The notes beneath the pieces are model-generated. The model was not told the DNA's origin, ran no database searches, and worked only from the letters and a program-made list of their open reading frames with translations. A stretch of DNA of 64,000 bases from a virus (taxonomy: Duplodnaviria > Caudoviricetes). Where the stretch lies: the IMG/VR virus record IMGVR_UViG_2832142748_000002, positions 10,418 to 74,417 of that record; one strand, 5' to 3'. The position numbers and the translations under genes were made by a program. Shown here piece after piece: positions 20,093-40,644 of this stretch (its first letter is position 1; every line of letters begins with the position of its first letter).

Positions 20093-20545
20093 TCAGGAGA
20101 CGAAGGGCAGGCGCCGGAAGCCGAGAACGTCGGGGCGGTACTCCACGCGGGTGAAGGACTTCACCTTCGCGTCCGCGCGCACCGCATCGTCCAGCGTGAG
20201 CGTCTTGCTGCCGCCCCCGGAGGCGCCCACCACGACTCCCGCGCCCACGTGCACCATGACGTGGTCCGGATCGCCGGCCTTGCCGTACAGCACCAGGTCT
20301 CCAGGCTGCAGGTCCGCCGCGCTCGCCACCGGAGCGCACTCCGCCCACAGCCGGTCCGTGTTGTGCGTCGCGCGCCAGTCCTTCCCGCCCACCTGATTGA
20401 AGCACCACGTCACGAGGCCGGAGCAGTCGAAGAGGCGCGGGCCATCCGCCGCGGCTCGCTGGCCCTTCGCGCCCCAGCGGTAGGGCGAGTGCATCTGCGC
20501 GAGGACGAGCTGAAGGAAGGCGGCGCGCTGCGAGGTGATAGGCAT
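20093..20545 (-). CDS. NlpC/P60 peptidoglycan peptidase (endolysin candidate)
   Basis: PYRWGAKG...FDCSGLV...PGDLVLY...HVMVHVG (catalytic Cys and His). Confidence 0.88.
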   Translation of the reverse strand: MPITSQRAAFLQLVLAQMHSPYRWGAKGQRAAADGPRLFDCSGLVTWCFNQVGGKDWRATHNTDRLWAECAPVASAADLQPGDLVLYGKAGDPDHVMVHVGAGVVVGASGGGSKTLTLDDAVRADAKVKSFTRVEYRPDVLGFRRLPFVS

Positions 20546-20577
20546 GGTGAGGCTCCGGCTGCTGGGAGTAGGCGGCG

Positions 20578-20661
20578 TCATGGAGAAGCGCTGACCCAGA
20601 CCGCCAGGACGAGGGCGGCGCACACGGCGAGCATGTGCGCGGCGAAGAGGGAGAGGCTCAC
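20578..20661 (-). CDS. 27-aa hydrophobic peptide
   Basis: MSLSLFAAHMLAVCAALVLAVWVSASP; GTGA overlap with the upstream gene. Confidence 0.4.
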   Translation of the reverse strand: MSLSLFAAHMLAVCAALVLAVWVSASP

Positions 20662-21407: not shown

Positions 21408-22691
21408 ATGCGAATCATTGAAGAAATCGACAGTGGCGGCTTCGGCAAAATCGAGAAAGTAGAACTCTCAGACGGCACAATCGCCGCAAGAAAGACTTTC
21501 TCACCCAGCGTCAAGGTGGCAACCAATGAGGAGCGCGAGAAGCTAAGAAAACGATTCTGCCGAGAGGTGCGAATTCAGCGCGGACTATCGTCCGACCTGT
21601 TCCTGCCGGTGCTTGACGCCGATCTTAACGGGCCCGCACCTTGGTTCACAATGCCGCTCGCCGACAAGTCATACATTGAGCAGATCGAAGAAGACAAGCA
21701 GTCCGGGATCATTACCAGCGAAGCTCTTGCAGACATTCTTAACGGATTAGAGGAACTACACAGGCTTGACTATGTACATCGTGACTTAAAACCCGCGAAC
21801 ATCCTTCTTCACGAAGGAACATGGAAACTGGCCGATTTCGGGTTGGCCTTGCCTCCGAACGGAGGGACATCCAGACTGAGTTCGCAGTATTCAGCGTGGG
21901 GCTCAGAACACTATGCAGCCCCCGAACAATACACCGACTTCTCAAACGTTCGACCTTCTGCCGACATCTACTCGTTCGGCTGTATTCTTCACGATCTCGT
22001 AGCAAACGCGAGCAGAATCCCTTATCAGCGGCAAACCTGTAGCGGGCCGTTCGCCCCAATCATAGAAAAATGCACCGAAACAATCCCAACAAAGCGCTTC
22101 AAGACAATTAGCGGGCTTCGATCCGCACTTCTAGGTCTCCTCGCTCAGCCGAACAGCATCAAGATCTCTCTCGAATCAGGGGAGTGGATCAAAGAACTCG
22201 ACTCAGTCAACACCTGGACAATCGAAACTGTCGCAAACTTCGAGCGCTACTTAAAAACAACCGACACGGAGCAAAAATGGGCCATCCTGGATAAGTTCAA
22301 TGAAGAAACTATCACCATCCTGTCGAAACTCGACCCAGACCTTTGGCTGTCGCTAGGGCTGGTTTATTCCGACTGGGCACGCGGATCATTCGACTTCTCA
22401 TACTGCGACGTGGTTGCAGTGCGCCTGCTCGCCATCTTCAAGTCGACAAGCTCACTGGAGCTCAAGGCATCCATTGCGCTTTCCCTTGCCGAACTTGCAT
22501 ATTCCCACAATCGCTGGTTCGTCATGGAACGACTATTCACGATTTGCGGTCACAGTTGCGACGCAGCCGCAGCCGCTCGAATCGCTCTTGAGATCCAGGC
22601 AGAGGAGTTTCAGAGGCCATTCAAGAGATGTGCAGAGGGAATTCGGCGCACGCCAACCATGTTCCATCCAATTATCGCAGGTGTCCTCTGA
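21408..22691 (+). CDS. Hanks-type Ser/Thr protein kinase (AT-richer moron, antisense to the late genes)
   Basis: GGFG, ARK, HRDLKPANIL, DFG, YAAPE and DIYSFG motifs all present; helical C-terminal domain; no TM. Confidence 0.95.
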   Translation: MRIIEEIDSGGFGKIEKVELSDGTIAARKTFSPSVKVATNEEREKLRKRFCREVRIQRGLSSDLFLPVLDADLNGPAPWFTMPLADKSYIEQIEEDKQSGIITSEALADILNGLEELHRLDYVHRDLKPANILLHEGTWKLADFGLALPPNGGTSRLSSQYSAWGSEHYAAPEQYTDFSNVRPSADIYSFGCILHDLVANASRIPYQRQTCSGPFAPIIEKCTETIPTKRFKTISGLRSALLGLLAQPNSIKISLESGEWIKELDSVNTWTIETVANFERYLKTTDTEQKWAILDKFNEETITILSKLDPDLWLSLGLVYSDWARGSFDFSYCDVVAVRLLAIFKSTSSLELKASIALSLAELAYSHNRWFVMERLFTICGHSCDAAAAARIALEIQAEEFQRPFKRCAEGIRRTPTMFHPIIAGVL

Positions 22692-23261: not shown

Positions 23262-25397
23262 CTAGATGGGCTGCTTGATGTTGTGGCTGAGGAGGCCCGC
23301 GGACTCGTACGTCCGGGCCCCGTGCACGGTGAGCTTCACGACGGCGCCCTCCCCTTCCGGCGCGACGCGCCGCACGAGCCCCGGGCGCAGGCCCTCCAGC
23401 AGCTCGCCGGGCCGAAGCGCGCGGACCTGCGTCCAACCTGCGAAGCGCCGGTAGACGAGGTGGTTGGGCGTCGCAACCAGGACGCGGCCATCCGTCAGCT
23501 CCACCCGCCAGCGCGCGGCCCGGTGGCTGGAGGCGGCCGTCACCTCAAAGGTGCCCACCCGGCGCGTGTCCTCGTGCTGGGTGAGGACGCGCATGCCGGG
23601 GCGGATGGACGCCGCAGGCACCTCCTGCCCGTCCTCCAGCGTGATGAGCGTCTCGGGCGCTACGCATGTGCCGCCCGTCCCGCCGGAGCCGCCGCCGCCG
23701 CCACCCGCGGGCGCGCCACTGAAGGGCGAGGTCGTGGACTTCGCGAAGTTGATGCCCAGCCCGGCGCCGAACGTGGGGGTGAACCACATGGAGGCGCTCA
23801 CGCCGTAGACGCCGTGCACCTCGCACAGGAGCGCGACGTACTCTCCCAGGTTCTGGCCGTAGAGCCCCGAGAGGGCCGCCGGGTACTGGAAGGTGTGGGT
23901 GATGGCGATGCGGTTGACCGCGTTGCCGTCCACTGCGGCGGCGTACTTCCGGTCCGCGAGGGTGATGTAGCGCGTGCCCCGGTACGTGGCGCTGACGCTG
24001 CTGTAGTAGTCCACCTTGAGGTAGCGGAGCGCGTCGAGGTTGTCGTCGATGCTGGAGGGCTGGATGAAGAAGTGGTGCACCAGCCAGGAGTGGACGATGG
24101 GCGTCGTGTACCGGAAGTAGTCCGTGCACTGGACGTCCAGCCGGTCAATGAGCGGCGCCCCGCCGCGCACGCCCGTGTTGTTGCTCCCCCGGTAGTGGAC
24201 GCGCCCCGCGGCCGATGTCCCATCCAGCGCCTGGTTGGCCCGGAAGAAAGGCGTGTCCAACAGGTAGCTACCAATCTGCACGTTGCCGCCGGCCGCCTTG
24301 AAGGCGGTGCCCACGTTGTCTAGCTTCGCCCCGGCGACGGGCACGCCGTTGCCGTCCTCCGCGTAGTTGGACGTCTGGAGGGTGTTGGCCACAAGCAGGT
24401 CGAACGTCACCATCTTCCGCATGGAGATGGCGTCCAGGTACACGGCCTTGCCGGCGTCCGCTCCCACGGCATTGAGCTCGAAGTACAGCTGCACGCCGGT
24501 GCACCCGGCCGGGCACGTGCCCTTCAGCTTCACGCGCTGGTAGCCCGTCGTGAGCGTGACGGCGACGGAGGTGATCTGACCGTCGTAGCTGCCGCTCGCC
24601 CCCTCCCAGAGAAGGAAGAGCGTCGCGCCAGACTGGGCGAGCGCGGCCGAGGACTTCACCCAGGCCTCGGCGTAGAACTGATCCCCAGCGGTGCACTTGA
24701 TGCGGCCACCGGGTGCGGTGCTCCGGTAGCCGCCGATGAAGTTGAGGCCCACGAAGCCGCCCCCCACGGGCACGGGCAGCTTGCGGCACCAGCGCCCCTC
24801 CTTCGCGCTGGAGGGCTCCTCCACCAGCCTGTCACCCTCGGGGGACTGGCCCAGTGCGGCCGCGCCGGCTTCCGAGTACCCGTTGGGCACCAGGTTGTCC
24901 GTGGGCGGCAGCAGCAGGTGCGTGAAGCTGATGGCCGCCGCCGCCACCGCGGCGCTGGTGACGGAGCTCGCCGACATGTGCCGGGCGTAGACGCTCCCCG
25001 TCGGCACATTGGAGAGGTCCGCCACTGCCATGGTGAGGGTGTCCGGGTCCGCCACCACGCTACCGCCGAGGACGCGCCAGTTGCTCTGGCTGCCGTTGGT
25101 GTAGAGGGCCTGGACAGCGCACTGCACCTCCGTCGGCAGCTTCAGCTTCAGCGGCGCCACCCACCGTCTCTCGGAGGGGCCGAACTTCCGGGGCTCCAGC
25201 AGGTAGCTGTCCGTGTTGTTGGGGTCGCTGCCCTCGTAGACGACGACCTGGAAGCCCGCGAGGAGGTGCGCGGGGAGCACCTCCTCGTGCGTCCAGCGGA
25301 TGTCCAGGTAGCGCGACTTGACGAGCTGTGGGGAGCGGACGCCGTCCACCTCCCGGTCGTAGACGCCGGCCGCTTCTTCCTGCTCGCGCGAGCGCAT
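23262..25397 (-). CDS. Tail fibre/tip protein with carbohydrate-binding-like domain and C-terminal Hint domain
   Basis: Follows gpJ. NLVPNGYSE...FYAEAWVK CBM-like segment; Gly linker; Hint 23280..23666 (C1, ATPNH, LLSHN) followed by IKQPI. Confidence 0.88.
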   Translation of the reverse strand: MRSREQEEAAGVYDREVDGVRSPQLVKSRYLDIRWTHEEVLPAHLLAGFQVVVYEGSDPNNTDSYLLEPRKFGPSERRWVAPLKLKLPTEVQCAVQALYTNGSQSNWRVLGGSVVADPDTLTMAVADLSNVPTGSVYARHMSASSVTSAAVAAAAISFTHLLLPPTDNLVPNGYSEAGAAALGQSPEGDRLVEEPSSAKEGRWCRKLPVPVGGGFVGLNFIGGYRSTAPGGRIKCTAGDQFYAEAWVKSSAALAQSGATLFLLWEGASGSYDGQITSVAVTLTTGYQRVKLKGTCPAGCTGVQLYFELNAVGADAGKAVYLDAISMRKMVTFDLLVANTLQTSNYAEDGNGVPVAGAKLDNVGTAFKAAGGNVQIGSYLLDTPFFRANQALDGTSAAGRVHYRGSNNTGVRGGAPLIDRLDVQCTDYFRYTTPIVHSWLVHHFFIQPSSIDDNLDALRYLKVDYYSSVSATYRGTRYITLADRKYAAAVDGNAVNRIAITHTFQYPAALSGLYGQNLGEYVALLCEVHGVYGVSASMWFTPTFGAGLGINFAKSTTSPFSGAPAGGGGGGSGGTGGTCVAPETLITLEDGQEVPAASIRPGMRVLTQHEDTRRVGTFEVTAASSHRAARWRVELTDGRVLVATPNHLVYRRFAGWTQVRALRPGELLEGLRPGLVRRVAPEGEGAVVKLTVHGARTYESAGLLSHNIKQPI

Positions 25398-25407
25398 GCC
25401 CTCCCAT

Positions 25408-27888
25408 TTACGGAGGAGGCGTGGACGAAATCCCCAGGGTAAGGGTGGCAGGCACCGTGGGCACGGACACCACGAGGACGCTCGCCGCGCTGGTGCTGTA
25501 GTTGCCCGAGGTGTCGATGGCCTTCACGTGCACCAGCTGGTTGGTGCCCGGCGCCGGCAGGGCCCATTCGTAGGTGGTGGCTCGCACCTTGCCGATGAGG
25601 CTGCCCACCTCCCAGCTGCTGCCGTAGCGCAGCTCGTAGGTGTCCCGGTCCAGGTCCGGCACCTCCGCCCAGCGCAACGTCGCGGTGCTTCCGTTGAGGA
25701 CGCAGGTGAGGCCCGTCACGTTGGAGGGAGGGGCCGCCTTGCCCACCACGGTGTGGCTGGCCGAGGCGTAGGTGGTGACGAGGCCGTTGAGGACGGCGGC
25801 CACCTGGACGGTGTACTCGCCCGGCAGGCAGTCCTGGAGCTCCCAGAAGTGCGTCTGCACCGGTGGCTCCGACGTCCAGTTGCCGCCCTCGCGCCGCCAG
25901 CGCACGCGGTACTCCGTGGCCGTGGCCACCTGCGTCCAGCGGGCCGTCACCATGACCTTCACGCCACCATTCGTCGTCTTGTACAGCGACTCGCCCACCG
26001 CGAGGCCCGCAGGTGGCGCGGACGAGGGCAGCACGGACGTGGGCAAGGGCTGCAGCTTCACGCCGTGCTCCACCTCCGCGTACTTCCCCGGCTCGTGGCG
26101 CAGGGCGGTGATTTCGTAGAGGTGCGGCTCCACCTCCGCGACGTTGAGGATGCGCCAGAGGGTGGGCGTCAAGTCGGACGCGGCCAGCACCCAGACGGCC
26201 TGGGGCTGGGGCGCGGCCGAGAAGGGCGTGGCCACCGTGAGGGCCCGGTACGGCGCCGGCGCGAGCGCGGCCAGCGGGCGCTCCTCCACGGTGCCGTCCG
26301 GCAGCACCGCGGAGAGGGCGTACGTCTTCCCTGCTTCCAGGGTGACGTCCGCGTCGAGCTCCACCTGGCTGGCGGTGGCGGCCACCACGCGCCCGCCCCA
26401 CCTGCGCCCGGCGCGGTATGGGTCCTGGAGCTTCACCACGGCGCCGGGGTTGCGCATGGCGCCCTCGAAGCCGGTGCGGAACGTCACCGTCTCCGTCTCC
26501 AGCCTCTCGGTGAGGAGCAGCCACCGGCCCACGCGCTGCGCCTGGCCCCGGGAGGTGCAGCCGAGCGCCACCACCTCGGTGGGGTTGTAGCCGTAGGTGG
26601 CGAGGCCCTCTTCGTCGGTGACGTACTCCTGGGCCACCTTGAAGTGGTTGTCCGGGTCGTTCCAGCTGACGAGGGCCACCGTGTGGCGTGCGCGCTTGCC
26701 GCTGGAGGCATACGTGAAGAGGCCCTCCACCACGTTGGCCGGCGTGAAGAGGTACTCGGCGTCGCGCGGCGCGTCCTGGGCGACGAAGACGGCGCCGGAG
26801 GCCCAGTACGTCATGCCGCGGAAGACGGACGCGAGGTTGTTGATGACCTTGTACGCGTCCTCCTGCGTCTGGAGGTAGAGGTTGCAGCGGAAGCGCGGCT
26901 CCATGCCGCCCTTCCCGTCCGGCACCAACTCGTCGCAGTACTTCCCCACCGTGTAGAGGCCCCATTTGTCCACGGCGGCCTCGTTGAGGTAGCGGCCCAG
27001 GCCGTAGCGCTTCGTCGTCAGCAAGTCGTAGAAGCACCAGGCCGGGTTGTCCGTCCAGGCCACCTTCCACGTGCCGTCCCAGGTGCCCTCGTACGTCCGG
27101 GCCACGGGGTTGTAGTTGCTGGGCACGCGCACCCGCAGCCCGCGAATCCGGTAGCTGCGCGTGGGGATGCTGCTGAACTGGCTCGCCGGCACCTGCAGCG
27201 CGCAGAGGGCGGTGTTGGGGAAGGAGAGCTTCTCGTCCAGCAGCGTTGCGTAGGACTTCCAGAGGACCTTGTTCTGCTTCGTGACGCTGTCGGCCTCCTC
27301 GCTGACGCGCGTGACGCGGATGTCCCACGGGGGCGAGCCCGTCAGCTCCACGCGGAAGGTGCGCTCGTAGGGGCTGGTGCACTTCCCGCGGAAGAGCTCC
27401 GCGCCCTGGAAGGACTGCTCCACGTAGCCGCCGCCGTTGCTCTGCACGGCGATGGAGACGAGGACGCGGGTGGGCAGCAGGTCGCCCGTCGTCGGATCCT
27501 GGTAGGTGAGCTGGGGCGCCTGGAGGGTGACGCGCACGGCGTCCACCCCCGGGTCCGTCACGGTGCGCACCACCGGGGTTGCGTGCTTCACCTCCACGCC
27601 CACGGAGTACTCCGCCTCGCCGGACGGGAAGCCGGGGATGTACTCCTGGGACTGCGTGCCGCGCACGTCGTAGACGGTGACGCCGGTGAAGTTGAAGGTG
27701 CCGTCGGGATTCTGGATGGCGACGCCGTCCAGGTAGACGGACTTCAGCCCGTCGACGAGGCCCTGAATCTCCCCCTCGCACAGCAGGTCCAACACGCGCG
27801 CCTTGGAGCTGGACTTCAACGTGTTCGGAGACTCGACGGGCGTCCGCTGGGCGCCGCCCTCCCCCTTGCCGCCGCTGCTGCCACCCAT
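25408..27888 (-). CDS. Lambda gpJ-like central tail tip protein
   Basis: DLLCEGEIQGL, WTDNPAWCFYDLLT..RYGLG, EPRFRCN, GRRWGGRV, FN3-like C-terminus. Confidence 0.95.
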   Translation of the reverse strand: MGGSSGGKGEGGAQRTPVESPNTLKSSSKARVLDLLCEGEIQGLVDGLKSVYLDGVAIQNPDGTFNFTGVTVYDVRGTQSQEYIPGFPSGEAEYSVGVEVKHATPVVRTVTDPGVDAVRVTLQAPQLTYQDPTTGDLLPTRVLVSIAVQSNGGGYVEQSFQGAELFRGKCTSPYERTFRVELTGSPPWDIRVTRVSEEADSVTKQNKVLWKSYATLLDEKLSFPNTALCALQVPASQFSSIPTRSYRIRGLRVRVPSNYNPVARTYEGTWDGTWKVAWTDNPAWCFYDLLTTKRYGLGRYLNEAAVDKWGLYTVGKYCDELVPDGKGGMEPRFRCNLYLQTQEDAYKVINNLASVFRGMTYWASGAVFVAQDAPRDAEYLFTPANVVEGLFTYASSGKRARHTVALVSWNDPDNHFKVAQEYVTDEEGLATYGYNPTEVVALGCTSRGQAQRVGRWLLLTERLETETVTFRTGFEGAMRNPGAVVKLQDPYRAGRRWGGRVVAATASQVELDADVTLEAGKTYALSAVLPDGTVEERPLAALAPAPYRALTVATPFSAAPQPQAVWVLAASDLTPTLWRILNVAEVEPHLYEITALRHEPGKYAEVEHGVKLQPLPTSVLPSSAPPAGLAVGESLYKTTNGGVKVMVTARWTQVATATEYRVRWRREGGNWTSEPPVQTHFWELQDCLPGEYTVQVAAVLNGLVTTYASASHTVVGKAAPPSNVTGLTCVLNGSTATLRWAEVPDLDRDTYELRYGSSWEVGSLIGKVRATTYEWALPAPGTNQLVHVKAIDTSGNYSTSAASVLVVSVPTVPATLTLGISSTPPP

Positions 27889-27889
27889 G

Positions 27890-28948
27890 TCAGTCCTCCA
27901 CCGTTGGGTCCGCCTTCTTCACGTTGTGGCTGAGGAGGCCGTCGGAGACGTAGGTGTGCGCGCCCGCCACGGTGAGGCGTACCACCGGCCCGCGCTCACC
28001 GCGCGTCACCTGGCGCACCACGCCCGGCCGGGCGCCCACCAGTCGCGTGCCGGCCGCGAGGTGCCGCAGTTCCACCCAGGCGTCCTCCGTCCGCACGCGG
28101 TGGGTGCCGGTGGCCTCCAGGCGTCGGCCGTCCTCCAACTCCAGCAGCCAGCGGACGCCCTCGGCGGGCTCCGCTGCGATGACGGGGAAGACGTCCCACT
28201 CCAGCGTCTCCTCGTCCTGGGTGCGCACCGCCATGCCCACCTGGACTTCGCCTGCCGGCACTTCCCGGCCGTCCGCCAGGAGGATGGGCACCCACGGCGC
28301 GGGGCAGGTGCCGCCGCCAGGGGTGGTTCCGCCGACGCCCGTCTGTCCGCTGCCGCTGTTGCCCCCGAAGCCGCCGTCGGACCACTCGGTGACGATGCCG
28401 GCGGAGACGACGCAGCTGCCCACCTCCATCTCCCCGTAGCAGATGGGCACCGGGTGGCCCTGGGCGAGCGTGTTGACGGGGCCGTTGAAGACGTAGCTGG
28501 GCTTGTTGGCGTCCTTCTCGTCAGGCCCATTCGCGGTGGGCGGGGCGAAGAGGAGCTGGGAGACGCCGCCGGCCATCAGGGAGATGCCCGCGGTGATGAG
28601 GGGCACGCCCGCGCCGTACCCGTAGACGGAGAGGACGACGCCGGCGGCGATGAGCACCGCACCCGCCACCACCTGGAACCAGCCGGACTTCGCCCCGGCC
28701 AGCGCGGGCATGAGGGTGAGGACGCGCGCGCCGGTGGGCATGCCCAGGTCGTCCTCCCCCACGTCCCGCTTGCCCGCGAAGACGTGGTAGCCGGGCTCGC
28801 TGTTCTCCGCGAGGTAGCGCCGGAAGCCGTCGCAGACGGCCGAGAGGGCGCGCACCGCCTCCGCAGGCGAGGGCACCGAGAGGTCCATCTTCCACACGCG
28901 CCCGAAGCGCTTCCCCAGCGGACCACCCAGGACGATGGTCGTCAGCAT
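27890..28948 (-). CDS. Lambda gpI-like tail assembly protein (ubiquitin-like N-terminus) with C-terminal Hint domain
   Basis: LGGPLGKRFGR...SPAEAVRAL...LMPALAGAKSG, Gly zipper, FNGPVNTLAQGHPVPICYGE; Hint 27923..28306 (C1, ATGTH, LLSHN) followed by VKKADPTVED. Confidence 0.92.
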   Translation of the reverse strand: MLTTIVLGGPLGKRFGRVWKMDLSVPSPAEAVRALSAVCDGFRRYLAENSEPGYHVFAGKRDVGEDDLGMPTGARVLTLMPALAGAKSGWFQVVAGAVLIAAGVVLSVYGYGAGVPLITAGISLMAGGVSQLLFAPPTANGPDEKDANKPSYVFNGPVNTLAQGHPVPICYGEMEVGSCVVSAGIVTEWSDGGFGGNSGSGQTGVGGTTPGGGTCPAPWVPILLADGREVPAGEVQVGMAVRTQDEETLEWDVFPVIAAEPAEGVRWLLELEDGRRLEATGTHRVRTEDAWVELRHLAAGTRLVGARPGVVRQVTRGERGPVVRLTVAGAHTYVSDGLLSHNVKKADPTVED

Positions 28949-29673
28949 CGGGAGACGTGCCTCACGACGCGCTGGGTGATGCGCTCCCAGAAGCCGGAGT
29001 ACGTCTCCCGGCCGGACAGGCGCCCCATGACGTGGTGCAGGAGGACATCCCCGCCCAGGTAGACGCCCGCGTGGTTGGGCACCGGGGCGCGCAGCTGCAT
29101 AAGGAGGACGTCATGCTCGCGCAGGGCCTGGCCCGTCACATCCACGAAGCCCGCCCGGCCGAAGCCCTCCTGGTAGAGGTTGCCACCCTTCGCCCACCAG
29201 TCGTCCGGGCGCTCGAAGTCGGGCAGTGCCAGGCCCAGGCGCTCCCGGTAGTAGTCCTGGATGAGGGAGTAGCAGTCCAGGACGCCGTGGCTGAAGGTGC
29301 GGCCCACCAGCGGCGGCCGGTAGCCGTCCGGGTACCAGAGGCACCAGTGCCCCACCGGCACGTTGAGGATAAGCCAGGGCAGGCCCCAGCGCTCCATCAT
29401 CACCCGGTCCGCCTCGCTCGGCTCCGGCGCGGCGTTGGGGTGGGAGTGCACCACTGCCACCACCTCGCCATCCCCTTCCGCCCGCGCATAGTCCTCGGGC
29501 GACAGGACGAAGTGCGCCTGGCCGTCGGCGAGGTTCCGGCAGGGCCGGTACCGCTGGGCGCCTCCAACCAGCACCACGAGGCCGCAGGACTCGCGGGGAT
29601 AGTCCGCCTGGGCGTGTGCGAACGCGGCGCCCAGGACGTCATCAGCCAGCGTCAGCCGGCAGGGGTCGACCAT
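28942..29673 (-). CDS. Lambda gpK-like tail assembly protein (JAB + NlpC/P60)
   Basis: ESCG and HSHPNAAPEPSEAD JAMM motif; DCYSL and HAGVY NlpC motifs. Confidence 0.95.
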   Translation of the reverse strand: MVDPCRLTLADDVLGAAFAHAQADYPRESCGLVVLVGGAQRYRPCRNLADGQAHFVLSPEDYARAEGDGEVVAVVHSHPNAAPEPSEADRVMMERWGLPWLILNVPVGHWCLWYPDGYRPPLVGRTFSHGVLDCYSLIQDYYRERLGLALPDFERPDDWWAKGGNLYQEGFGRAGFVDVTGQALREHDVLLMQLRAPVPNHAGVYLGGDVLLHHVMGRLSGRETYSGFWERITQRVVRHVSRC

Positions 29674-29729: not shown

Positions 29730-30557
29730 TCAATGCTGCATCTCGTTGATGACCGCATCCACGAACTGCAGGCGACACTCCGGAGCGGGATGTTTCGACT
29801 GCGCTTCGCCCTCATCACATCGGATTGGCAGAACCAGAGCCGGCTGCTCGCACGAAACGGAATTGATCCCGGCATCGGCAAGATCGGCACGGGCGCGCGC
29901 AATCATCTTGGCGACAGGCGTATTGGGCGACTCGGCGAGAGCCCGGAGTTCCTCGTTCGTGACAACACCACCGTCGGCGCGCTTCATGTTTGGCCCTCTC
30001 AACCGGAGCATCAGCTGGAAAGAGCATGACTCAACGGAACGCGCGAACAGGCGCGCGCTCTCTTTATCTATTTTATCCTTCGCCTTTGGCCCGGCCCAGG
30101 CCACCCGACAGTCCTTGATGACGGGCCGCTTGAGGAGGAGGCCTCGCACTGTACCGTGGAAGGCAACAAGCTGCCCCTTCGCCAGCTCCGCGACGGCTTG
30201 CATCTGCTCGTCCGGAACAAGGCACATGACAGAGCTCATCATCTCGCCCACGTCCAGCGAGATGACGATGTTATCTGTCGCGTCCTTGGCAATGTCTTGG
30301 ATGAGTCCCGTCACCTCCACCTGCTTGCTGCGGTACTTCATGTCCGCTGCCACCTCGTTCTCGGCGTAAGCCTCCCAAAGCTGGCGCGGGCCCACGAGGA
30401 TGAGCCCTGGTGCGGCAGGAGCTGGAGGTGGACTGGGAGCCCTGGCGGCTGGGCCCGAGGTATCGCTGGGTGCTGCTGCCACCTGCTCCGGGGCCCGTCC
30501 CGCCTCCTGCTTGCACCCGACTACCGTCAGCACTGCAACAAGCCACCACGCGCGCAT
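29730..30557 (-). CDS. OB-fold lipoprotein (tRNA_anti-like family), moron
   Basis: Lipobox VVGC; QLWEAYAENEVAADMKYRSKQVEVTGLIQDI signature. Confidence 0.82.
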   Translation of the reverse strand: MRAWWLVAVLTVVGCKQEAGRAPEQVAAAPSDTSGPAARAPSPPPAPAAPGLILVGPRQLWEAYAENEVAADMKYRSKQVEVTGLIQDIAKDATDNIVISLDVGEMMSSVMCLVPDEQMQAVAELAKGQLVAFHGTVRGLLLKRPVIKDCRVAWAGPKAKDKIDKESARLFARSVESCSFQLMLRLRGPNMKRADGGVVTNEELRALAESPNTPVAKMIARARADLADAGINSVSCEQPALVLPIRCDEGEAQSKHPAPECRLQFVDAVINEMQH

Positions 30558-30650
30558 CGTCCCCTCCAGTGAGACGTGGGAGGACAGCACGGGGCACCAG
30601 AACGACGCAAGGAGTCGGGCTTGGCGGCGGGCGTCTCTGGAAAGGATGGA

Positions 30651-31194: not shown

Positions 31195-32124
31195 TCAGAT
31201 GACCTCGATGGTCGGCTCAGCGTCTTCACCAGTGCCAACTGCGAGAACGCTCCGCCGCCGAGCCGGGTCAGCCTTCGAGCGCTCCTTCGCAACTTTCTGA
31301 ACGAGGTCAGCTCGGTGGATGGTCGCGGCCGCTTCCGCCTTCACATCGTTCACGACCACGAGGCCGCAGGACGATGAGAGGTGACGGGGCACTCCTTTCA
31401 CCTTGACCGTCTCCCCGGAGAGCGATGCCAAGGCCGCATGCAGGCGACGCCGTGCCTGTTCCAGCGGAGTCGCTGGCATCACGACAACAACCTCATCACC
31501 GCCCTTTCTGTAGGCATCGCCCACGTCGGAGACTGCCTTTTCGAGGACATGGAAGAACGCCTTGATGGCCTCATCGCCAGTGGCGTGATCACCGTCCTCG
31601 TTGAATGCCTTGAGCCCGTTCATGTCGAGATAGGCCACAGAAACTGGCGAATCTGCCTGGATATTCATAATGGCGATCGCCAAGTCACGCTCAGCATAGC
31701 GTCCATCGTAAAGGATATCAAAAGGCTCTCGAAGCCGGGTCGCCCGAAGCTCGTCTTGCAGTCGCGCCAATTCCAGTCGACCCAGGTGGCCCATCTCCAG
31801 GCCTACAGTCTGCCCCGACAATAGCCGCCCGACAAGCAATGCCTGTTCTCGGCGGTCTTCGCTCTCCATCTGCTGGGCGAGCGTACTCGTGTATCGCATG
31901 TCGATAGAGTCATAGCCCCTTCGAGTATCGGGGCCATTGAGGATGCCGCGATGAATGAGCGACATCACCATTTGCATTTTTTTCGCGGACATGAACTCAC
32001 TCCCGCCCAGAGGGAATGAAACGCTAATCCAGCGCTCCTGCTCAAATCGAGCAAGGAACTGCAACTCGCGGAAACGAGCATCATTCACGTAGTCAGCCAT
32101 GCCGGATGGGTCCTCGTGCGCCAT
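31195..32124 (-). CDS. GGDEF-domain protein (putative diguanylate cyclase), moron
   Basis: YLDMNGLKAFNEDGDHATGDEAI...YRKGGDEVVVV...SSCG. The guanine-binding N and D are kept; no RxxD I-site. Confidence 0.85.
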   Translation of the reverse strand: MAHEDPSGMADYVNDARFRELQFLARFEQERWISVSFPLGGSEFMSAKKMQMVMSLIHRGILNGPDTRRGYDSIDMRYTSTLAQQMESEDRREQALLVGRLLSGQTVGLEMGHLGRLELARLQDELRATRLREPFDILYDGRYAERDLAIAIMNIQADSPVSVAYLDMNGLKAFNEDGDHATGDEAIKAFFHVLEKAVSDVGDAYRKGGDEVVVVMPATPLEQARRRLHAALASLSGETVKVKGVPRHLSSSCGLVVVNDVKAEAAATIHRADLVQKVAKERSKADPARRRSVLAVGTGEDAEPTIEVI

Positions 32125-32247: not shown

Positions 32248-32943
32248 CTACCGGATCAGCCCTACCGCCGGAAATCCCCCGTACGGAAGCACTGCGGTAG
32301 TCCCAAAGCGCAGCTTGCAGCTTGTGAGGCGCTTCCCGCAGCGGTCCTCGGTGGCACTGGACGTCAGCGTATCGTCCAGCTTCGCTACCGGGGGCCCCGC
32401 GTAGCCGCAGCCCTCCCCCCGGTACTCCCAGGGGCACATCTGCGTGATGATGCGCAGGGGGATGCGGACGCCGTCCAGGTCGCACTTCGCGGCCAGGCTG
32501 AACTCGATGACGTGCTTGTTCTCCACCGTCTTCTGATCCACCACGAATTCGTCGTCCGGGAAGGCATCCAGCGGCGAGGCGGTGGGGTTGACGCCCCCGG
32601 GGTAGTTCACCGCGTCCAGGTAGCGGACGAAGGTGCGCTTCCGGAGGACGCGCGCGCCCAGCAGATCGTTCAAGTCCCGCGCCATGGCGCCGATGGTGCC
32701 GGCGACGTTGGCGAGCGTCAGGGTGGGCCGGGGCAGCCGGCCCATGCCCGACTTGTCGAAGCCCTTCACCTGGATGGCCCAGGGCTCGTACGCCATGCCC
32801 TGCCAGACGACGGGCCCGCGGAGGCCATTGGTACCCGCGTGGAAGTGGCTGACGCCCCCGCCAGGCAGGTTGGTGGCGTCCAGGACGAAGAGCTCCACGA
32901 GGGCCCCCGCGTCCAGCCTCTGGATGTCGTTGGCGATGCTCAC
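32248..32943 (-). CDS. Lambda gpL-like minor tail protein
   Basis: VELFVLDAT, PRPTLTLAN, RKRTF, CPWEYRGEGCGY...CGKRLTSCKLRF (Fe-S Cys pattern), GGFPA. Confidence 0.95.
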   Translation of the reverse strand: MSIANDIQRLDAGALVELFVLDATNLPGGGVSHFHAGTNGLRGPVVWQGMAYEPWAIQVKGFDKSGMGRLPRPTLTLANVAGTIGAMARDLNDLLGARVLRKRTFVRYLDAVNYPGGVNPTASPLDAFPDDEFVVDQKTVENKHVIEFSLAAKCDLDGVRIPLRIITQMCPWEYRGEGCGYAGPPVAKLDDTLTSSATEDRCGKRLTSCKLRFGTTAVLPYGGFPAVGLIR

Positions 32944-33527
32944 CCTGCCTCCTCCTGGAACGTCGCAGTGAAGTCGTAGGCATTGAAGCCCTTCGCGGTG
33001 CGGTGCCACTCCTCGCACACGACGTGCGCCACCAGTTCGCCCGCGCCGGTGAAGGTGAGCGCCGCCCCAGCGGCTGGCGCCGCAGTGAAGGTGACGAGAC
33101 CCGAGGCAGAGAGCACGTAGGCGGTCCCCGCCACCTGGGCGACGCCCGCCACGTAGACGGTGGGCGGCGCCGACCAGTCTGCGGCGGGCACCAGCAGATG
33201 CGGCATCTCCGGGGACAGCGGACGCTGGAGGAGCCACTGTGTCCGCGCCTCGTCTCCCACCCCGAAGGGCTGCGCGGCGACCGACCAAGCTGTGTCCGGG
33301 GTGACGAACTCGAAGGGCTCGACGCCCGCGCGGGCGCGCAGGAAGGACTCCAGGGCGTCCGCGTCCACCTTCGTGAGGCTGGAGAACTGGAGGGCCCAGC
33401 GCCGCAGGACGGGGTTGAGTCCGTCCCCGGATCGCTGGGTGTAGCCCTCACCGAACTGCGCCTTGCGCACCCGGAGCACCGAGTCCGCCTGGGCCCCGTA
33501 GTCCGGAGTGAAGGGGAAGCGCTCCAT
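32940..33527 (-). CDS. Lambda gpM-like distal tail protein with an inserted domain
   Basis: VRKAQFGEGYTQRSGDGLN...FL.AR.GVEPF...ATFQE. Confidence 0.92.
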   Translation of the reverse strand: MERFPFTPDYGAQADSVLRVRKAQFGEGYTQRSGDGLNPVLRRWALQFSSLTKVDADALESFLRARAGVEPFEFVTPDTAWSVAAQPFGVGDEARTQWLLQRPLSPEMPHLLVPAADWSAPPTVYVAGVAQVAGTAYVLSASGLVTFTAAPAAGAALTFTGAGELVAHVVCEEWHRTAKGFNAYDFTATFQEEAG

Positions 33528-35069: not shown

Positions 35070-35387
35070 CTACCTCAACTCGCGTCGTCGTAACAGCCTG
35101 CCCGCGTAGTCCCGCTTGGCGTAGCAGTTCGTTGCCCGGTGTCCTTTGTGGCCGCAGCGGAAGCACACGAAGCCTTTCGCACCGTGGATGCGGCCGTGGA
35201 CGCCTCGCGACACCGCAGTGAGGTTCTCCGGCCGGTTGTCCCCCTTGTCGCCGTTGATGTGGTGGACGACTTGCCCCTCTTGGAGAGGCCCCCCGAGCTT
35301 CTCCTCCATCGTGTAGACGTGGACGAACCGCATCCGTCCGTCACGGGCCCGGAACGTCTTGTAGCCGTTCTTCCATCCGAAGCTCAT
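35070..35387 (-). CDS. Small HNH endonuclease with C-terminal CCHC zinc knuckle
   Basis: VVHHINGDKGDNRPENL..VSRGVH; CFRCGHKGHRATNC = C-x2-C-x4-H-x4-C. Confidence 0.82.
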   Translation of the reverse strand: MSFGWKNGYKTFRARDGRMRFVHVYTMEEKLGGPLQEGQVVHHINGDKGDNRPENLTAVSRGVHGRIHGAKGFVCFRCGHKGHRATNCYAKRDYAGRLLRRRELR

Positions 35388-35519
35388 GCGGCCTCCTGGG
35401 TGCCCACGTGGCGGCAGTGCTACGTGGGGAACCCCAATAGCATACCACAAAAGACCACATTGGACCACCTGCACGAATGAATGAGCCCCGCATATGCGGA
35501 GTAGCCGCTGGGCGGCTGA

Positions 35520-36633
35520 GTTACTGACGACGCCAAGCTCAAGGCGAACGTGGAAGCGCGGCTGGTGCGCGTGGGCGACGCGCTGGTGGCGCTGGAGAAG
35601 GCCGCGCGGCTCGCGCCGGACGCGGCCGTGCTGCTGGACCTGGAGGACCTGAGCCTGCGCTGCGAGCGGCCCGAGCATGCCCGCAGTGCGCTGGAGTCGC
35701 TGCTGTCCACGCTGCCGCGCACCGCGGCGCCGGAGAAGCTGGCGGACGTGCGCGCGCGGCTGGGCCGGGCGTGTGAGCTCCTGGGCGACCGTGAGGGCGC
35801 CATTGCCGCGTACGCGCAGGCGTTCCCGCTGCGGCGGCTGGACGACGTGCGCGCCACTCGGCTGGAAGCCCTCTACACGGAGGCCGGCGAGATGCAGGCA
35901 CTGGCCGAGCTATGGGCCACGCGCGCGCAGGCGCTGGCGGGCGCGGACCGGTCGGAAGAAGCGGCGCCGCTGTTCTTCCAGAGCGCGCGCGCCCTGCTGG
36001 AGCGCGGGGAGAAGGCCGCCGCGCTGATGCGCCTGGCTTCCGCGCTGGAGGCGAGCCCCGAGGGACCGCTCGCCGCGGAAGTGCTGGAGGCCCTGGCCGA
36101 GCTGGAGCTGGAGCGCGGCGAGAAGCTGGAGGCGGCGCGGCTGTACGCGCGGCGGGCCACGCTGGTGCCAGAGGCCCGGGCGGGCGCGAAGCTGCTCTTC
36201 CGCGTCGCTGCTGGCCGCGGGCACCAGCCGCGAGGAGGCCTTCCTCGCCGAGGCGCTGGAGCGCGACGCGACGTTCGCGCCCGCGCGGATCCGCCGGGGC
36301 GAGCTGCGGCTGACCACGGATGCCCGCGCCGCGCTGGAGGACTTCGAGGCGGTGCTGGCCCTGCCGCCCGCGGACGTGGATGCCCCGCGTGAGGCGGAGC
36401 GCGTGGCCCTCACGCGCAAGGCCGCCACCGCCGCCGTGCGCGCGAACCGCACGGACGCGGCCCGGCGCCTGCTCGCGGAGTTCTGCGCGCGCACGCCGAA
36501 GGACTTGGACGCGCGGCTTGAGTTGGCCGCGCTGCACCGCAAGGCCGGCGCCAGCCGGGCCCGGGCGGACCTGCTGGCGGAGCTGTGGCCGCGCCTCGCC
36601 GGAGCCGCCCGCTGCCCGCCCTGCGAATCCTGA
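35520..36633 (+). pseudogene. Internal fragment of a large host-type TPR gene, frameshifted near 36201
   Basis: TPR-like helices (EGAIAAYAQA, EAARLYARRA); KLLFR continues as (A)SLLAAGTSREEAFL after a 2-bp loss; begins after an in-frame TGA at 35517. Confidence 0.75.
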
Positions 36634-36900: not shown

Positions 36901-39900
36901 CTACCGCCCCCGGACGAACGTGTACGTCATGCCTCCGGGGGCCATCTCCTCGCGCATCACCTTCCGGACTGCGTCCGCGAGGCGGCGGCCCAGACGCTCC
37001 GCCTCCGCGCGCCCGCCCTCCCCTGACGCGCTCACCTGGGAGGAGCCGTCCGAGTTGATGGTGATGGAGATGGTCTGGTTAACGTCCCCTCCCCCCAGCG
37101 CCTCGTTGGGGACGATGCGGCCGGAGCTGGAAGGGATGAAGAGCTCCGGCCCCAACTCGCCCACCAGGTGCGCCTGCTGCGCGCGGACGGACCCGCCGGC
37201 CGCGTGCGCGCCGCCCAGCATGAAGTTGTAGGTGCCGCTCATGTCCGCGCCGCCGACCATGGTGGAGCCGCTGCCGCCGGACGAGCCCATCCCGCTGATG
37301 GCGTCCATGCCCAGGTTGACGAGCGCCATGAAGGCCTTCTGCGCCGCGAGCCGCGCCAGGTCCTTCAGGATGCCATCCACGAGGGCGGAGAACTCCAGCC
37401 GGCCCGTGGTGACGAAATTCGCGAAGGCGTCCGCCATGTGCTGCGTGGCCGTGCCGACGATCTCCTTCGTGTAGGAGAAGCCACCGTGGAGCTGGTCCTG
37501 GAGGCGCTCCACTTCCTGCCGGTACTGCTCCGCGGTGATGCGCCCCTCGGCGAAGAGCTGCTTCACCATCTCCAGGCGCTTCTGCAGCTCCGCCGTCGGG
37601 TTGAGCTGCTTGGCGAGTTGGTCCATCTCCGTCTTCAGCGCCGCCTCGGCCTTGCCCTCCGGCGTCCACATCTCCCGGGCCTTCTTCATGGCCTTCGCGT
37701 ACTCCTCCGCCTTGATGCGCTGAGCCGCGAGCTCCTCGCCCAGCAGCTTCTGGGCCTGGGCGTACTTCACGGTGTCCTGATTGCCCAGCTCGCGATTGAG
37801 GCTCTGGAGCACCTGCTTGCGCTCCTCCTCCGCCTTCTTCACCCGCTCCGTCTCCTCCTTCTGCTTCCGGAGGGCCTCCAACTGGGCGATGGCCGCGTCC
37901 GCCCGCGCGATCATCTTCGGGTCTTTCAGCGAGCGGTATTCGTCGGAGAGCTCCTTCGCTTCGTCCTTCGTCTTGCCGAGGGTGCGCGCCTCCTCTTCCA
38001 GGTTCATCAGCCACTGCTCCTGGCGCTTGAGCAGCTTCTCCCGGGCCTTCTCCTCCTGCTCTGCCTCCTTGAGTGAGGCCTTCGTGTTGGCGGTGCTCTC
38101 CTTCGCGGCGGCCGCGCTCACCTTCGCGTCTTCCGCTCGTGCAGCCCGCACCCGCTGGAGGCTCTTCTCGATGTCGGCCGCGCGCTGCATTTGGATGCTG
38201 AGATCCTTCTCCAGGGGCGCTAGCTTCTTCTCAATGTCCTCGGCGTAGGCGGGGTCCGCACGAACCTTCGAGAATGGCACGTCACGACCTATGTTCTTCG
38301 ACAGCCTTTCATCGTTGTAGTGATTCAGCACGATCCAACGCTTCACGCCGTTGTTGGGATCGTTGATTTCCTTTTCGAGCCGGTCAATCTCAGCCAAGGC
38401 CGCCACCAGATCCTCCTGGGAGAGGCTTTCGTAAACCCTGACGACATCCTCCGCTGAGTCGCCAACGTTTTTCAGGGCATCCTGGTATCTCCCCCCCAGC
38501 GACGCCATTTCCGTGCGCGCGATAGCGGCGGCCTTCTGCGCCTTCTCGTAGTCCTTGAGGGCCTTCGTTTCGCGGATGAGGTTCTCCGCGATTTGACTGC
38601 CACGGGTGGCGTTGGCGCCGCTCTCTTGAGCGAACTGCCGCGTCTTCTCCTTCGCGTCCTCTGCGGCTTTGCCGTACTCGTGCCAGAGGGCGACCGCCGT
38701 GGTGAGGGCGCCGGTGATGATGCCGATGGGCCCACCCATGAACTCCAGCGCCGTCTTCCCCGCGCGCGCCGCCAGGGACGCGCCCTCGATGGCTGACGCC
38801 TCCCTCACCTTCGCCAGCGCCAGCTCCGTGGAAGCCAGCGTGGCACGCTTCGTCGCCGACATGAGGCTGCCCTCCACGGCCGCCGAAGCCTGGAGCGCCG
38901 CGAGCTTCTTCTCCAACATGGCCTGCGCCGAGCGGAGCGCGGCGATGCGGCTCTCGTCGGCGGCCCGGGCGTACTTCGCCTCGGCGAGCGCGGCGCTCGC
39001 AGCGGACTCGCGCGCCTGGGTGAGCGCGGTGGACTTCGCAACCAGCCCCTTCACCCACTCCTGGGCCCACGTGGCCCCGCGCATGGCCGCCACCACCACC
39101 AGCGCCTCACCGAAGAGCTTCACGGCGTAGGTGGCCGTCTCGAAGTTCTCCGTCAGCGCCCGGACTCCCGGCTCCGTCGCGGAGAGGATGTCGCCGCCCA
39201 CCTCGCCCTGGAGCTCCGAGAAGCGCGCGCGGAGCTGGTCCAAGGCGAATTGGGGCGTGCTCGCCATCTTGTTGAAGGCGGCCTCCGTGCGTCCGGCGGA
39301 GTCCTGCATGTGCTTCAGGGAGGCGGCGAAGTCCGCGGAGGCGGTGCCGGTGAGCGTCATCACCGGAAGCAGGGCTTCCACGCCCCCGAAGAGCATGGCC
39401 ATCTCCTCGGTACTGCCACGCGTCTTCTCTTTCACGTCCTGGAGGAAGCCGGCGAGCCCTTTGGCCTTCAGCGCGGTGACGGAGAACTCCAGGCCGAGCG
39501 CGTCCGCGAGCTTCGCTGCTTCGTGGGACGGCTTCGCGGTGGCGGCGATGATGGCGCGCAGGCCTTCCATGGCCGTGGACGTCTGGATGTTGTTCTTCGT
39601 GAGGGCACCCGTGGCCGCGAGCAGTTCCGCGAGGCTGACGCCCGTCTGGGAGGCGATGGGGGCCACCCGGCCGATGAAGCGTGAGAGGTCCTCGATGCTC
39701 GTCTTCCCATCCGCGGCGCTCACGAACATCATGTCCGCCGCCTGGGTGACGTTGCGCAGCTGGCTGCCGTAGCTGGCCATGACGCCCGTCAGGCCGTCCG
39801 CAGCCGTCCTCACGTCCGTCACGCCGCCAATGGCCAGCTTGTTGGAGACGGTGAGCAACTCCGTGGCCTTCGCCGCGTCGCTCGCGCCCGCGCTGAGGAT

Positions 39901-40644
39901 TTCGTAGAGGGCCCCGGCCTGGTCCGTGGGTGTCCGGCCGAACTGGTTGCCCAGCTCCTTCACCTTCGCGGTGAGGGAGTCCATCATCCCCAGCTGGTCC
40001 TGCTCCAGCACCGTGGAAACCTGGGCCATCGCCGTCGAGAACCGCAGCGCCTCTTCCGTGGCGCTCTTGATGGCGGCTCCCGCCGCCGCGACGCCGAGGA
40101 ACTGGCCCGCCAGGCTCTTCATCCCGTCCGCGAACTTGCTCACCGGAGGCTCGGCCTTTGCGGCCTCCTCCTTCACCTTGCGGAGAGCGTCCGCCGCCCC
40201 CTCTTTCTGCTTCCCCATCTCGTCGAAGCGCTTGTTGAGGGACTCCACATGCCCCAGGAAGCGCGACAGCGCGGACGTGTCCGCGAGCGTCGCCTGGAGC
40301 TTTCCGGCCGCGCCACCGAGGGACATGAGCTGGGCCTCCAGCGCCCCCGTCGCCGTCGCCGTCGCCGTGAAGGCTGTCTGGATCTTCGCCGCGGACTGCT
40401 CCAGCACCGAAAGGTGCGAGGTGGCGGCCCGGATGTCGGCCAGCGCCTTCGACGTGCCGTCCAGGCTCCGCGTCGCGCGGGCGAAGGCCTTCGTGAGGGC
40501 CTCGGTGGCGTTCTCCAGGCCCGATGTCCTCCGCTCCGTCTTCTCGGCAGCCTCCTCCAGCCCACCCAGCGACGTGACGGCCTCTTTCGCGTCGGAGGTG
40601 TCGATGCGGATGCTCAGCTCAGCCAGGTCAAAGCCACCGGACAT
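36901..40644 (-). CDS. Tape measure protein (TP901-type core, lambda-like C-terminus)
   Basis: 1247 aa, Ala-rich; FGRTPTDQAGALYEILSAG, GKTSIEDL, GGAHAAGG...VGELGPELF. Confidence 0.96.
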   Translation of the reverse strand: MSGGFDLAELSIRIDTSDAKEAVTSLGGLEEAAEKTERRTSGLENATEALTKAFARATRSLDGTSKALADIRAATSHLSVLEQSAAKIQTAFTATATATGALEAQLMSLGGAAGKLQATLADTSALSRFLGHVESLNKRFDEMGKQKEGAADALRKVKEEAAKAEPPVSKFADGMKSLAGQFLGVAAAGAAIKSATEEALRFSTAMAQVSTVLEQDQLGMMDSLTAKVKELGNQFGRTPTDQAGALYEILSAGASDAAKATELLTVSNKLAIGGVTDVRTAADGLTGVMASYGSQLRNVTQAADMMFVSAADGKTSIEDLSRFIGRVAPIASQTGVSLAELLAATGALTKNNIQTSTAMEGLRAIIAATAKPSHEAAKLADALGLEFSVTALKAKGLAGFLQDVKEKTRGSTEEMAMLFGGVEALLPVMTLTGTASADFAASLKHMQDSAGRTEAAFNKMASTPQFALDQLRARFSELQGEVGGDILSATEPGVRALTENFETATYAVKLFGEALVVVAAMRGATWAQEWVKGLVAKSTALTQARESAASAALAEAKYARAADESRIAALRSAQAMLEKKLAALQASAAVEGSLMSATKRATLASTELALAKVREASAIEGASLAARAGKTALEFMGGPIGIITGALTTAVALWHEYGKAAEDAKEKTRQFAQESGANATRGSQIAENLIRETKALKDYEKAQKAAAIARTEMASLGGRYQDALKNVGDSAEDVVRVYESLSQEDLVAALAEIDRLEKEINDPNNGVKRWIVLNHYNDERLSKNIGRDVPFSKVRADPAYAEDIEKKLAPLEKDLSIQMQRAADIEKSLQRVRAARAEDAKVSAAAAKESTANTKASLKEAEQEEKAREKLLKRQEQWLMNLEEEARTLGKTKDEAKELSDEYRSLKDPKMIARADAAIAQLEALRKQKEETERVKKAEEERKQVLQSLNRELGNQDTVKYAQAQKLLGEELAAQRIKAEEYAKAMKKAREMWTPEGKAEAALKTEMDQLAKQLNPTAELQKRLEMVKQLFAEGRITAEQYRQEVERLQDQLHGGFSYTKEIVGTATQHMADAFANFVTTGRLEFSALVDGILKDLARLAAQKAFMALVNLGMDAISGMGSSGGSGSTMVGGADMSGTYNFMLGGAHAAGGSVRAQQAHLVGELGPELFIPSSSGRIVPNEALGGGDVNQTISITINSDGSSQVSASGEGGRAEAERLGRRLADAVRKVMREEMAPGGMTYTFVRGR

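Follow-up and report, generated by a model that had tools for sequence, protein, structure and literature searches.

gpI with an appended Hint domain

The 64,000-nucleotide stretch analysed here (the window; positions 10,418 to 74,417 of the IMG/VR record IMGVR_UViG_2832142748_000002, a virus of the class Caudoviricetes) carries a lambda-like tail module, all of it on the minus strand, in which the gene for the tail-tip protein gpI encodes a Hint domain at its 3' end. The adjacent fibre-like protein, encoded after gpJ, ends with a second Hint domain. The gpI part is a complete lambda-type gpI homologue (residues 1–196), and what follows is an accessory, self-contained C-terminal cassette that comprises a Gly-rich linker, a Hint domain resembling type-A bacterial intein-like (BIL) domains, any residue followed by Lys, and a few further residues. 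Such a layout, with a linker ending in GGGT and a 128-residue Hint, had been proposed in an earlier note made from the DNA letters alone, and it is borne out by the translation, by matches to PDB and PHROG entries, by the AlphaFold2 (AF2) model and by Foldseek searches. The third-position GC content (GC3) of the gene is 0.94, similar to that of the adjacent phage genes. The nearest database protein to gpI-Hint comes from Corallococcus and is 93% identical, so that the window is taken to belong to a myxobacterial prophage.

Residues 1–196 align from end to end with gpI-type proteins of solved structure (PDB search; 25vf_9, E 2.6e-36; lambda gpI, 8iyk_I, E 7.5e-21) and match PHROG 32, 'tail assembly protein', with E 1.6e-55. 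The N-terminal domain is assigned to the ubiquitin-like (Ubl) class following Iyer (2006). It has a beta-beta-alpha-beta-beta secondary structure in the AF2 model, its Gly85 is invariant in the aligned sequences, the AGAKSG motif is kept with respect to lambda gpI, and Pfam Lambda_tail_I matches residues 5–68 at E 8.4e-4, which is under the curated cut-off. The next two segments correspond to the H1 and H2 helices described for lambda gpI (PMC11101478) and to its C-terminal structural part, residues 117–196 matching the virion-resolved lambda gpI chains of 9e7m (E ~5e-9). Residues 135–196 are disordered in the AF2 monomer model, as expected where folding occurs against gpJ. The lambda alignment, the AF2 model and a Pfam Prok-JAB match in the neighbouring gpK also confirm the combination of a beta-grasp Ubl domain in gpI with an adjoining JAB domain, which the earlier note had pointed out.

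According to Iyer (2006), members of this family consist of the Ubl and TAPI-C domains and lie between the JAB protein K and J; fusions of I to J and of I to K were noted in that paper, and no Hint fusion was. The view taken there, that gpI is excluded from the mature tail, has been made outdated by cryo-electron microscopy (PMC10721106; PMC11101478). The lambda tip holds three copies of gpI, whose residues ~135–223 form a plug under the C-terminus of the tape measure protein and whose hydrophobic helices, it has been proposed, pass into the outer membrane upon opening (PMC10721106; PMC11101478; PMC12617516); this trimeric plug threads between the gpJ hub domains (PMC10721106; PMC11101478). 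The window protein shares with lambda gpI/TAPI (Iyer 2006; 8IYK, 8XCG, 9E7M) the Ubl domain, the AGAKSG motif, the two hydrophobic helices, the plug/strand part and the K-I-J gene order, but lambda gpI ends at residue 223, whereas here the linker, the Hint domain and the tail add 156 extra residues.

The AF2 model of the gpI Hint has a pLDDT of ~90, and its top Foldseek match is BIL2 of the Tetrahymena BUBL locus (6y75, E 5.6e-12), with further matches to DnaB mini-inteins (Ssp DnaB; 1mi8), the Clostridium thermocellum BIL 2lwy and hedgehog 1at0. At the sequence level it matches the NpuDnaB mini-intein 4o1r (E 1.5e-4). It stays under the thresholds of every Pfam Hint family (the best being Intein_splicing, E 0.0055, and PT-HINT, E 0.06), and we therefore used fold and profile searches; a profile built from 12 Hint domains matches 2lwy with E 2.5e-9, and both have HTY in block F. 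Cys215 (Cys1) and the block-B His283 are invariant in the alignments, block F contains AHTY and the domain terminates in His341-Asn342. The residue at position +1 is Val343, not Cys, Ser or Thr, and the 128 residues leave no endonuclease insert. The Lys at +2 (Lys344) is invariant in both sets of aligned sequences (12/12 and 14/14). By these sequence characters the gpI Hint falls within the definition of a type-A BIL and appears closest to domains of that type.

With the C. thermocellum type-A BIL (2LWY; Amitai 2003, Dassa 2004 and Aranko 2013, via PMC7765530 and PMC7664689) it shares the Hint fold, Cys1, the block-B His, HTY in block F, the terminal His-Asn, the lack of a +1 Cys, Ser or Thr and of an endonuclease, and the placement in a region of the host protein that varies and is not conserved. 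The clade to which the window domains belong differs from that type in its position at the extreme C-terminus (84 of the 150 best representatives), with ~3–14 residues after His-Asn, in the near-invariant Lys at +1 or +2, in having phage tail-tip proteins as hosts and in scoring under the Pfam Hint gathering thresholds.

Other classes of Hint proteins were considered and rejected. A canonical (class 1) intein would have Cys, Ser or Thr at +1 and be inserted at a conserved site of a host protein that is rejoined; this domain has Val at +1 and a 'C-extein' of only 10 residues, and the Hint-less relatives of gpI merely end earlier. Pre-toxin HINT domains (Zhang 2012, PMC3482391) and the hedgehog Hog resemble it as autoprocessing Hints near the C-terminus of long filamentous or secreted proteins. 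Unlike them, the gpI Hint precedes neither a toxin domain nor a sterol/adduct-recognition region: 10 residues follow it, its PT-HINT score is under the cut-off, and it has the terminal His-Asn that hedgehog Hints lack. A BUBL-type layout, with the Ubl Gly directly before Cys1, does not apply to a protein whose Ubl domain ends near residue 86 and whose Cys1 is residue 215.

The second Hint domain and the wider clade

The Hint domain of the 711-residue fibre-like protein is 49% identical to that of gpI (BLASTP, E 8e-35), and the C-terminus of the fibre reads GGT/C...SHN-IKQPI (the slash marks the junction before Cys1). The two domains are thus paralogous but diverged and share the GGT/C and HN-x-K ends, as the earlier note had stated. 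In fold searches the fibre Hint gave Z scores of 18–20 overall, among them 19.7 for 2lwy (1.5 Å over 130 residues) and 20.2 for 4o1r. The gpI Hints of related prophages are 68–70% identical to one another and ~50% identical to their own fibre partners; accordingly, the sequences make the two Hints old paralogues, with no recent internal copy. A DNA alignment of the two revealed short identical runs at both junctions only and no sign of recent gene conversion. The maximum-likelihood tree of 12 Hint domains did not resolve (no starred branch), and pairwise identities were used instead.

The fibre contains a conserved domain of ~180 residues before its Gly linker and Hint (residues ~395–560; window positions 23750–24260, minus strand). 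This domain is common to 42 of the 150 best Hint-clade representatives; no Pfam family covers it, and its model is an FN3/Ig-like beta-sandwich, with a Z score of only ~8.

The gpI-Hint fusion was also found, down to 38% identity, in prophages of Corallococcus, Myxococcus and Pyxidicoccus and on metagenomic contigs. A profile search with the Hint domain against 1.84 billion cluster representatives yielded a clade of 173 representatives at E<=1e-30, or 2,337 at E<=1e-10. Among the best 150, the Hint is located at the very C-terminus in 84 (followed by a median tail of 5 residues), 7 are gpI-type proteins and 59 have internal or tandem Hints. A Pfam scan of 49 of the C-terminal cases detected Phage-tail_3 (gpJ-like) in 17, Rcc01698_C in 4 and FNIII-A_GpJ in 2, and the remaining scanned cases have tail-tip, spike, carbohydrate-binding or collagen domains. 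The cassette that ends the window fibre is the same one that caps many gpJ-like and fibre proteins of other phages. Past the terminal Asn, proteins of the fibre/J class have a median of 5 more residues and those of the gpI class a median of 9, and Gly-rich flanks at the -1 side are common throughout the clade.

Such a position, mostly at the distal C-terminus of receptor-binding proteins, would suit a Hint that is retained on the virion and undergoes a reversible N-S shift, its thioester reacting with a nucleophile of the host envelope and so making adsorption covalent. Intein precursors can keep a latent thioester for a long time, as in the intein purification systems. We nevertheless regard this explanation as highly improbable: it accounts for neither the conserved His-Asn nor the Lys, the thioester would probably be lost to a cytoplasmic thiol ahead of lysis, and no phage precedent is known.

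Conservation of the catalytic positions in this clade is close to complete. All 167 clade domain copies have the terminal Asn, and all but one have the penultimate His (166); Cys1 occurs in 165 and Lys at +1 or +2 after His-Asn in 162. Cys, Ser or Thr at +1 is rare, and the block-B His is invariant in the Hint alignments. These numbers bear on the suggestion that the Hint is catalytically dead and kept as structural decoration or a spacer outside the tip, which could be argued from the replacement of the block-F Asp by Arg and from the non-catalytic C-terminal domains found at the same position in other gpI homologues. That Cys1, the block-B His, His-Asn and Lys are kept almost without exception among sequences that are only 30–40% identical would be difficult to account for if the two junctions underwent no chemistry, and we find a dead Hint quite improbable. 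Since both junctions are conserved, chemistry can be argued for both of them.

Close relatives of the gpI part (50–61% identity) lack the Hint and end ~20–45 residues past the gpI core, and other gpI homologues have unrelated, non-Hint C-terminal extensions of 60–130 residues (P0025, P0040, P0043, P0114, P0109 and P0097). Judging from these sequences, the C-terminus of gpI is evidently a site at which extra domains are generally added. A C-terminal addition would plausibly lie outside the tail tip.

Several other Hint arrangements were encountered. P0131, P0156, P0225 and P0263 carry head-to-tail tandem arrays of 4–6 Hints joined by only HN-K-G(G)-C; these Hints form a different subfamily, with a CF..GT start. 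P0073 (L005, 3977–5110), a coiled-coil-rich protein of 377 residues encoded on a short metagenomic contig, has no gpI part and terminates in a Hint of the same subtype, with 55% identity to the gpI Hint. In a Myxococcus prophage (L007, 16378–17693) genes for an AHH nuclease toxin and an Imm11 immunity protein are located just downstream of a Hint-ended fibre.

Probable self-processing and possible ligation

Co-occurrence of gpI-Hint with a fibre Hint, for which the earlier note had suggested a survey of phage genomes, is frequent but not a rule. Seven loci combine gpI-Hint with a Hint on the fibre or J, namely the window, L002 (where the Hint ends a J of 1,467 residues), L003, L007 and three more that were recognized by spacing and frame sizes only (one in a genome of the same genus, two in one genome of the same family). 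L001, L008 and L009, on the other hand, have gpI-Hint and no second Hint within the locus; the L008 fibre has only its first 165 residues in common with the window fibre, its distal part being different and Hint-less. In L010–L012 and most of the clade, a J-like or fibre protein bears the Hint and gpI is absent from the vicinity. Given these unpaired loci, the Hint-less gpI relatives and the other C-terminal domains of gpI, each cassette is autonomous and accessory, and co-occurrence is not required.

The earlier note had proposed that a Hint-generated thioester replaces E1/E2 activation in an enzyme-free conjugation that links parts of the tail tip, with the Lys after His-Asn as the acceptor. 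The chemistry has a precedent: in Tetrahymena BUBL BIL2 (6Y75/6TMM; Chiarini 2021, via PMC8616854), an isopeptide bond is formed between a Lys epsilon-amine and the upstream C-terminus without ATP or E1/E2. As in BUBL, a Ubl-containing protein carries the BIL here and a Lys is found downstream of it, the known nucleophile in BUBL and a candidate in gpI-Hint. In BUBL, however, the Ubl C-terminus is directly on Cys1 and the downstream partner is a second Ubl, whereas in gpI-Hint ~128 residues (helices, structural part and linker) separate the Ubl Gly of AGAKSG from Cys215, and the downstream part is a 10-residue tail. A thioester at Cys215 would therefore activate the C-terminus of the whole gpI and not the Ubl domain, and the proposal is supported in part only. 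The candidate acceptor Lys, although near-invariant in the clade, is located in the 10-residue tail of the very same chain, and its use would thus link no tail-tip parts.

Linking of subunits could still be achieved in trans, if the C-terminal thioester of gpI (and of the fibre) were attacked by an amine of another tip subunit, such as gpJ, and the tip were stapled by an isopeptide or peptide bond. Consistent with this option, the top structural match of the gpI Hint is BUBL BIL2, which conjugates its upstream domain to Lys without ATP (PMC8616854), all catalytic residues are conserved, gpI, gpJ and the fibres form trimers that are packed against each other in the tip, and seven loci have both gpI-Hint and a Hint-bearing fibre or J. 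A covalent link between the I C-terminus and the J N-terminus also appears to be tolerated, given the I-J fusions listed by Iyer (2006) and P0274, a direct gpI-gpJ fusion of 1,378 residues in which gpI residues 2–197 are joined to a J-type protein by a Pro/Gly-rich linker of ~20 residues. When we looked for longer fused forms, no I-Hint-J polyprotein turned up, only Hint-bearing fibres and this one Hint-less I-J fusion.

Still, we consider conjugation in trans unlikely. BIL domains mostly cleave (PMC7664689), the Hint lies at a distance from the Ubl domain, and pairing is not obligatory, most of the clade having no gpI-Hint. On fibres and J proteins the cassette is at the distal end, where receptors are bound and other subunits are remote, and the only nucleophile conserved throughout the clade is the chain's own Lys at +1 or +2. 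The Gly/Lys-rich N-terminus of J is not specific to Hint-bearing phages, and that of lambda gpJ is similar. An N-terminal Cys of J was considered as the nucleophile for an attack of the native-chemical-ligation type and was dismissed, as J starts with MGGSSGGKGEGG and has no Cys at the N-terminus. There is also a low probability that the Gly-Hint-x-Lys cassette is an ATP- and enzyme-independent ligation device of tail morphogenesis, which would use either its own Lys, as in BUBL BIL2, or in trans a Lys of a neighbouring tip subunit to give a stapled tip, with the isopeptidase-type JAB domain of gpK as a possible editor.

In our opinion, the Hint cassette probably sheds itself and leaves a gpI that ends at Thr214, either free or capped by a Lys-bearing peptide. 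From the architecture, fold, conservation of catalytic residues and distribution described above we infer that Cys215 would attack the carbonyl of Thr214 in an N-S acyl shift, that water, a thiol of the cytoplasm or the invariant Lys344, through its epsilon-amine, would resolve the resulting thioester, and that Asn342 would cyclise; as a result, a 14-kDa Hint would be released and the mature gpI would end at Thr214, with or without a short peptide that contains the Lys. Such an outcome is in line with the behaviour of BIL domains that lack a +1 nucleophile, which 'produce predominantly cleaved products' (PMC7664689), mainly by N- and C-terminal cleavage (PMC7664689; PMC7765530). Because the Ubl domain is at the other end of the protein, self-processing would involve no activation of it. 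A functional analogy, and no more than that, is offered by the Peptidase_S74-type C-terminal chaperones of tailspikes and fibres, which are thought to be self-removing modules as well but have an unrelated fold and chemistry and gave no sequence match in the Pfam scans.

Several observations weigh against this explanation. The conserved terminal His-Asn and the Lys would be superfluous for simple removal, hedgehog Hints doing without them, so that plain hydrolysis is probably an incomplete account. Since plain cleavage leaves the near-universal Lys next to His-Asn unexplained, attack by this Lys in cis, and hence ligation through it, may be regarded by analogy with BUBL as a serious option. 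Block F of the gpI Hint has Arg at a position where many inteins have Asp. In a tblastn search of 50,697 cultured-phage records there was no cultured phage with a close relative of the Hint: the gpI Hint had no match at E<=1e-5, and the fibre Hint matched one uncultured record (MT835519, E 9e-9) and, weakly, true inteins in terminases and helicases. Finally, shedding does not explain the benefit of gaining a Hint only to lose it again.

The chemistry of Hint/BIL domains is well known, and so is gpI, but a literature search for Hint or intein-like domains in connection with tail fibres, the tail tip or host specificity yielded no description of this module, a tail-tip Hint cap with an invariant Lys after His-Asn. 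The clade is large, and its best matches are mainly on proteins that decide host range. If the Lys acts as the nucleophile, bacterial viruses would have their own version of the ciliate 'ubiquitination by protein splicing', and the cassette would be a compact, ready-made self-ligating or self-cleaving tag. If it only cuts itself off, it would represent a new type of removable C-terminal module of fibres and tip proteins, with consequences for the prediction of mature receptor-binding proteins and for the annotation of gpI and J genes.

Neighbouring genes and the host genome

The features of the gpI and fibre genes and of the surrounding tail module are listed in Table 1. The K-I-J order of the window, with a K protein that has both JAB and NlpC/P60 domains, is also found in L001–L004, L006 and L007.

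Table 1. Coordinates of the gpI-Hint gene, the Hint-ended fibre and other tail genes in the window
Feature	Position	Strand	Basis
gpI-Hint gene	27890..28948	minus	Translation of the open reading frame (ORF), 352 residues and stop; PHROG 32; gpI homologues in PDB; GC3
N-terminal ubiquitin-like (beta-grasp) domain of gpI, residues 1–86	28691..28948	minus	Conserved AGAKSG at the end; alignment to lambda gpI
Two hydrophobic helices (lambda gpI H1/H2), residues 89–133	28550..28684	minus	AF2 helices 89–108 and 114–133; lambda alignment
C-terminal structural part of gpI (TAPI-C, plug and beta strands), residues 135–196	28361..28546	minus	Matches to 9e7m and 8iyk_I
Gly-rich linker ending in GGGT (Thr214 is the -1 residue), residues 197–214	28307..28360	minus	Translation; pLDDT <50
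gpI Hint (type-A-BIL-like), Cys215–Asn342, 128 residues	27923..28306	minus	AF2, Foldseek, profile, invariant columns
10-residue tail VKKADPTVED after His-Asn	27893..27922	minus	Translation; Lys344 (27917-27919) is the +2 Lys
Fibre-like protein after J, 711 residues	23262..25397	minus	Translation; PHROG tail fiber, E 2.1e-5; AF2; fold search
Fibre Hint, Cys578–Asn706, 129 residues, followed by IKQPI	23280..23666	minus	BLASTP to the gpI Hint; fold search
gpJ homologue, 826 residues, hub and central fibre	25408..27888	minus	FNIII-A_GpJ, E 6.9e-37; Phage-tail_3, E 3.6e-25
gpK homologue (JAB metallopeptidase plus NlpC/P60)	28942..29673	minus	Pfam Prok-JAB, E 2.1e-18; NLPC_P60, E 9e-11
gpL homologue (start approximate)	32248..32870	minus	Pfam Phage_tail_L, E 1.4e-66, residues 143–344 of ORF 32248-33288
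gpM homologue (distal tail protein)	32940..33527	minus	Pfam Phage_min_tail, E 1.3e-22
Tape measure protein	36901..40644	minus	Pfam PhageMin_Tail, E 2e-28; Tape_meas_lam_C, E 4.4e-12

Two accessory genes are inserted between gpL and gpK, one for a GGDEF diguanylate-cyclase-like protein (31195–32124, minus strand) and one for a Sie-like / tRNA_anti-like OB-fold protein (29730–30590, minus strand), and an ORF for an HNH endonuclease (35070–35678, minus strand) lies between the tape measure gene and gpM. Further along the window there are a tail-tube gene and ORFs of terminase, portal and capsid size; the Pfam scan covered the tube and the capsid. Just past the fibre region, on the opposite (plus) strand, a Ser/Thr-kinase-like gene is found at 21408–22691 (PHROG 2361, E 9.7e-44), and beyond it an NlpC/P60 protein, possibly a lysis enzyme, is encoded at 20093–20623 on the minus strand.

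The host genome (G000) codes for four further Hint domains that are more distant, on contigs C512, C56, C333 and C486 (E 4.9e-17 to 2.9e-6), one of which is part of an open frame of 2,100 residues.

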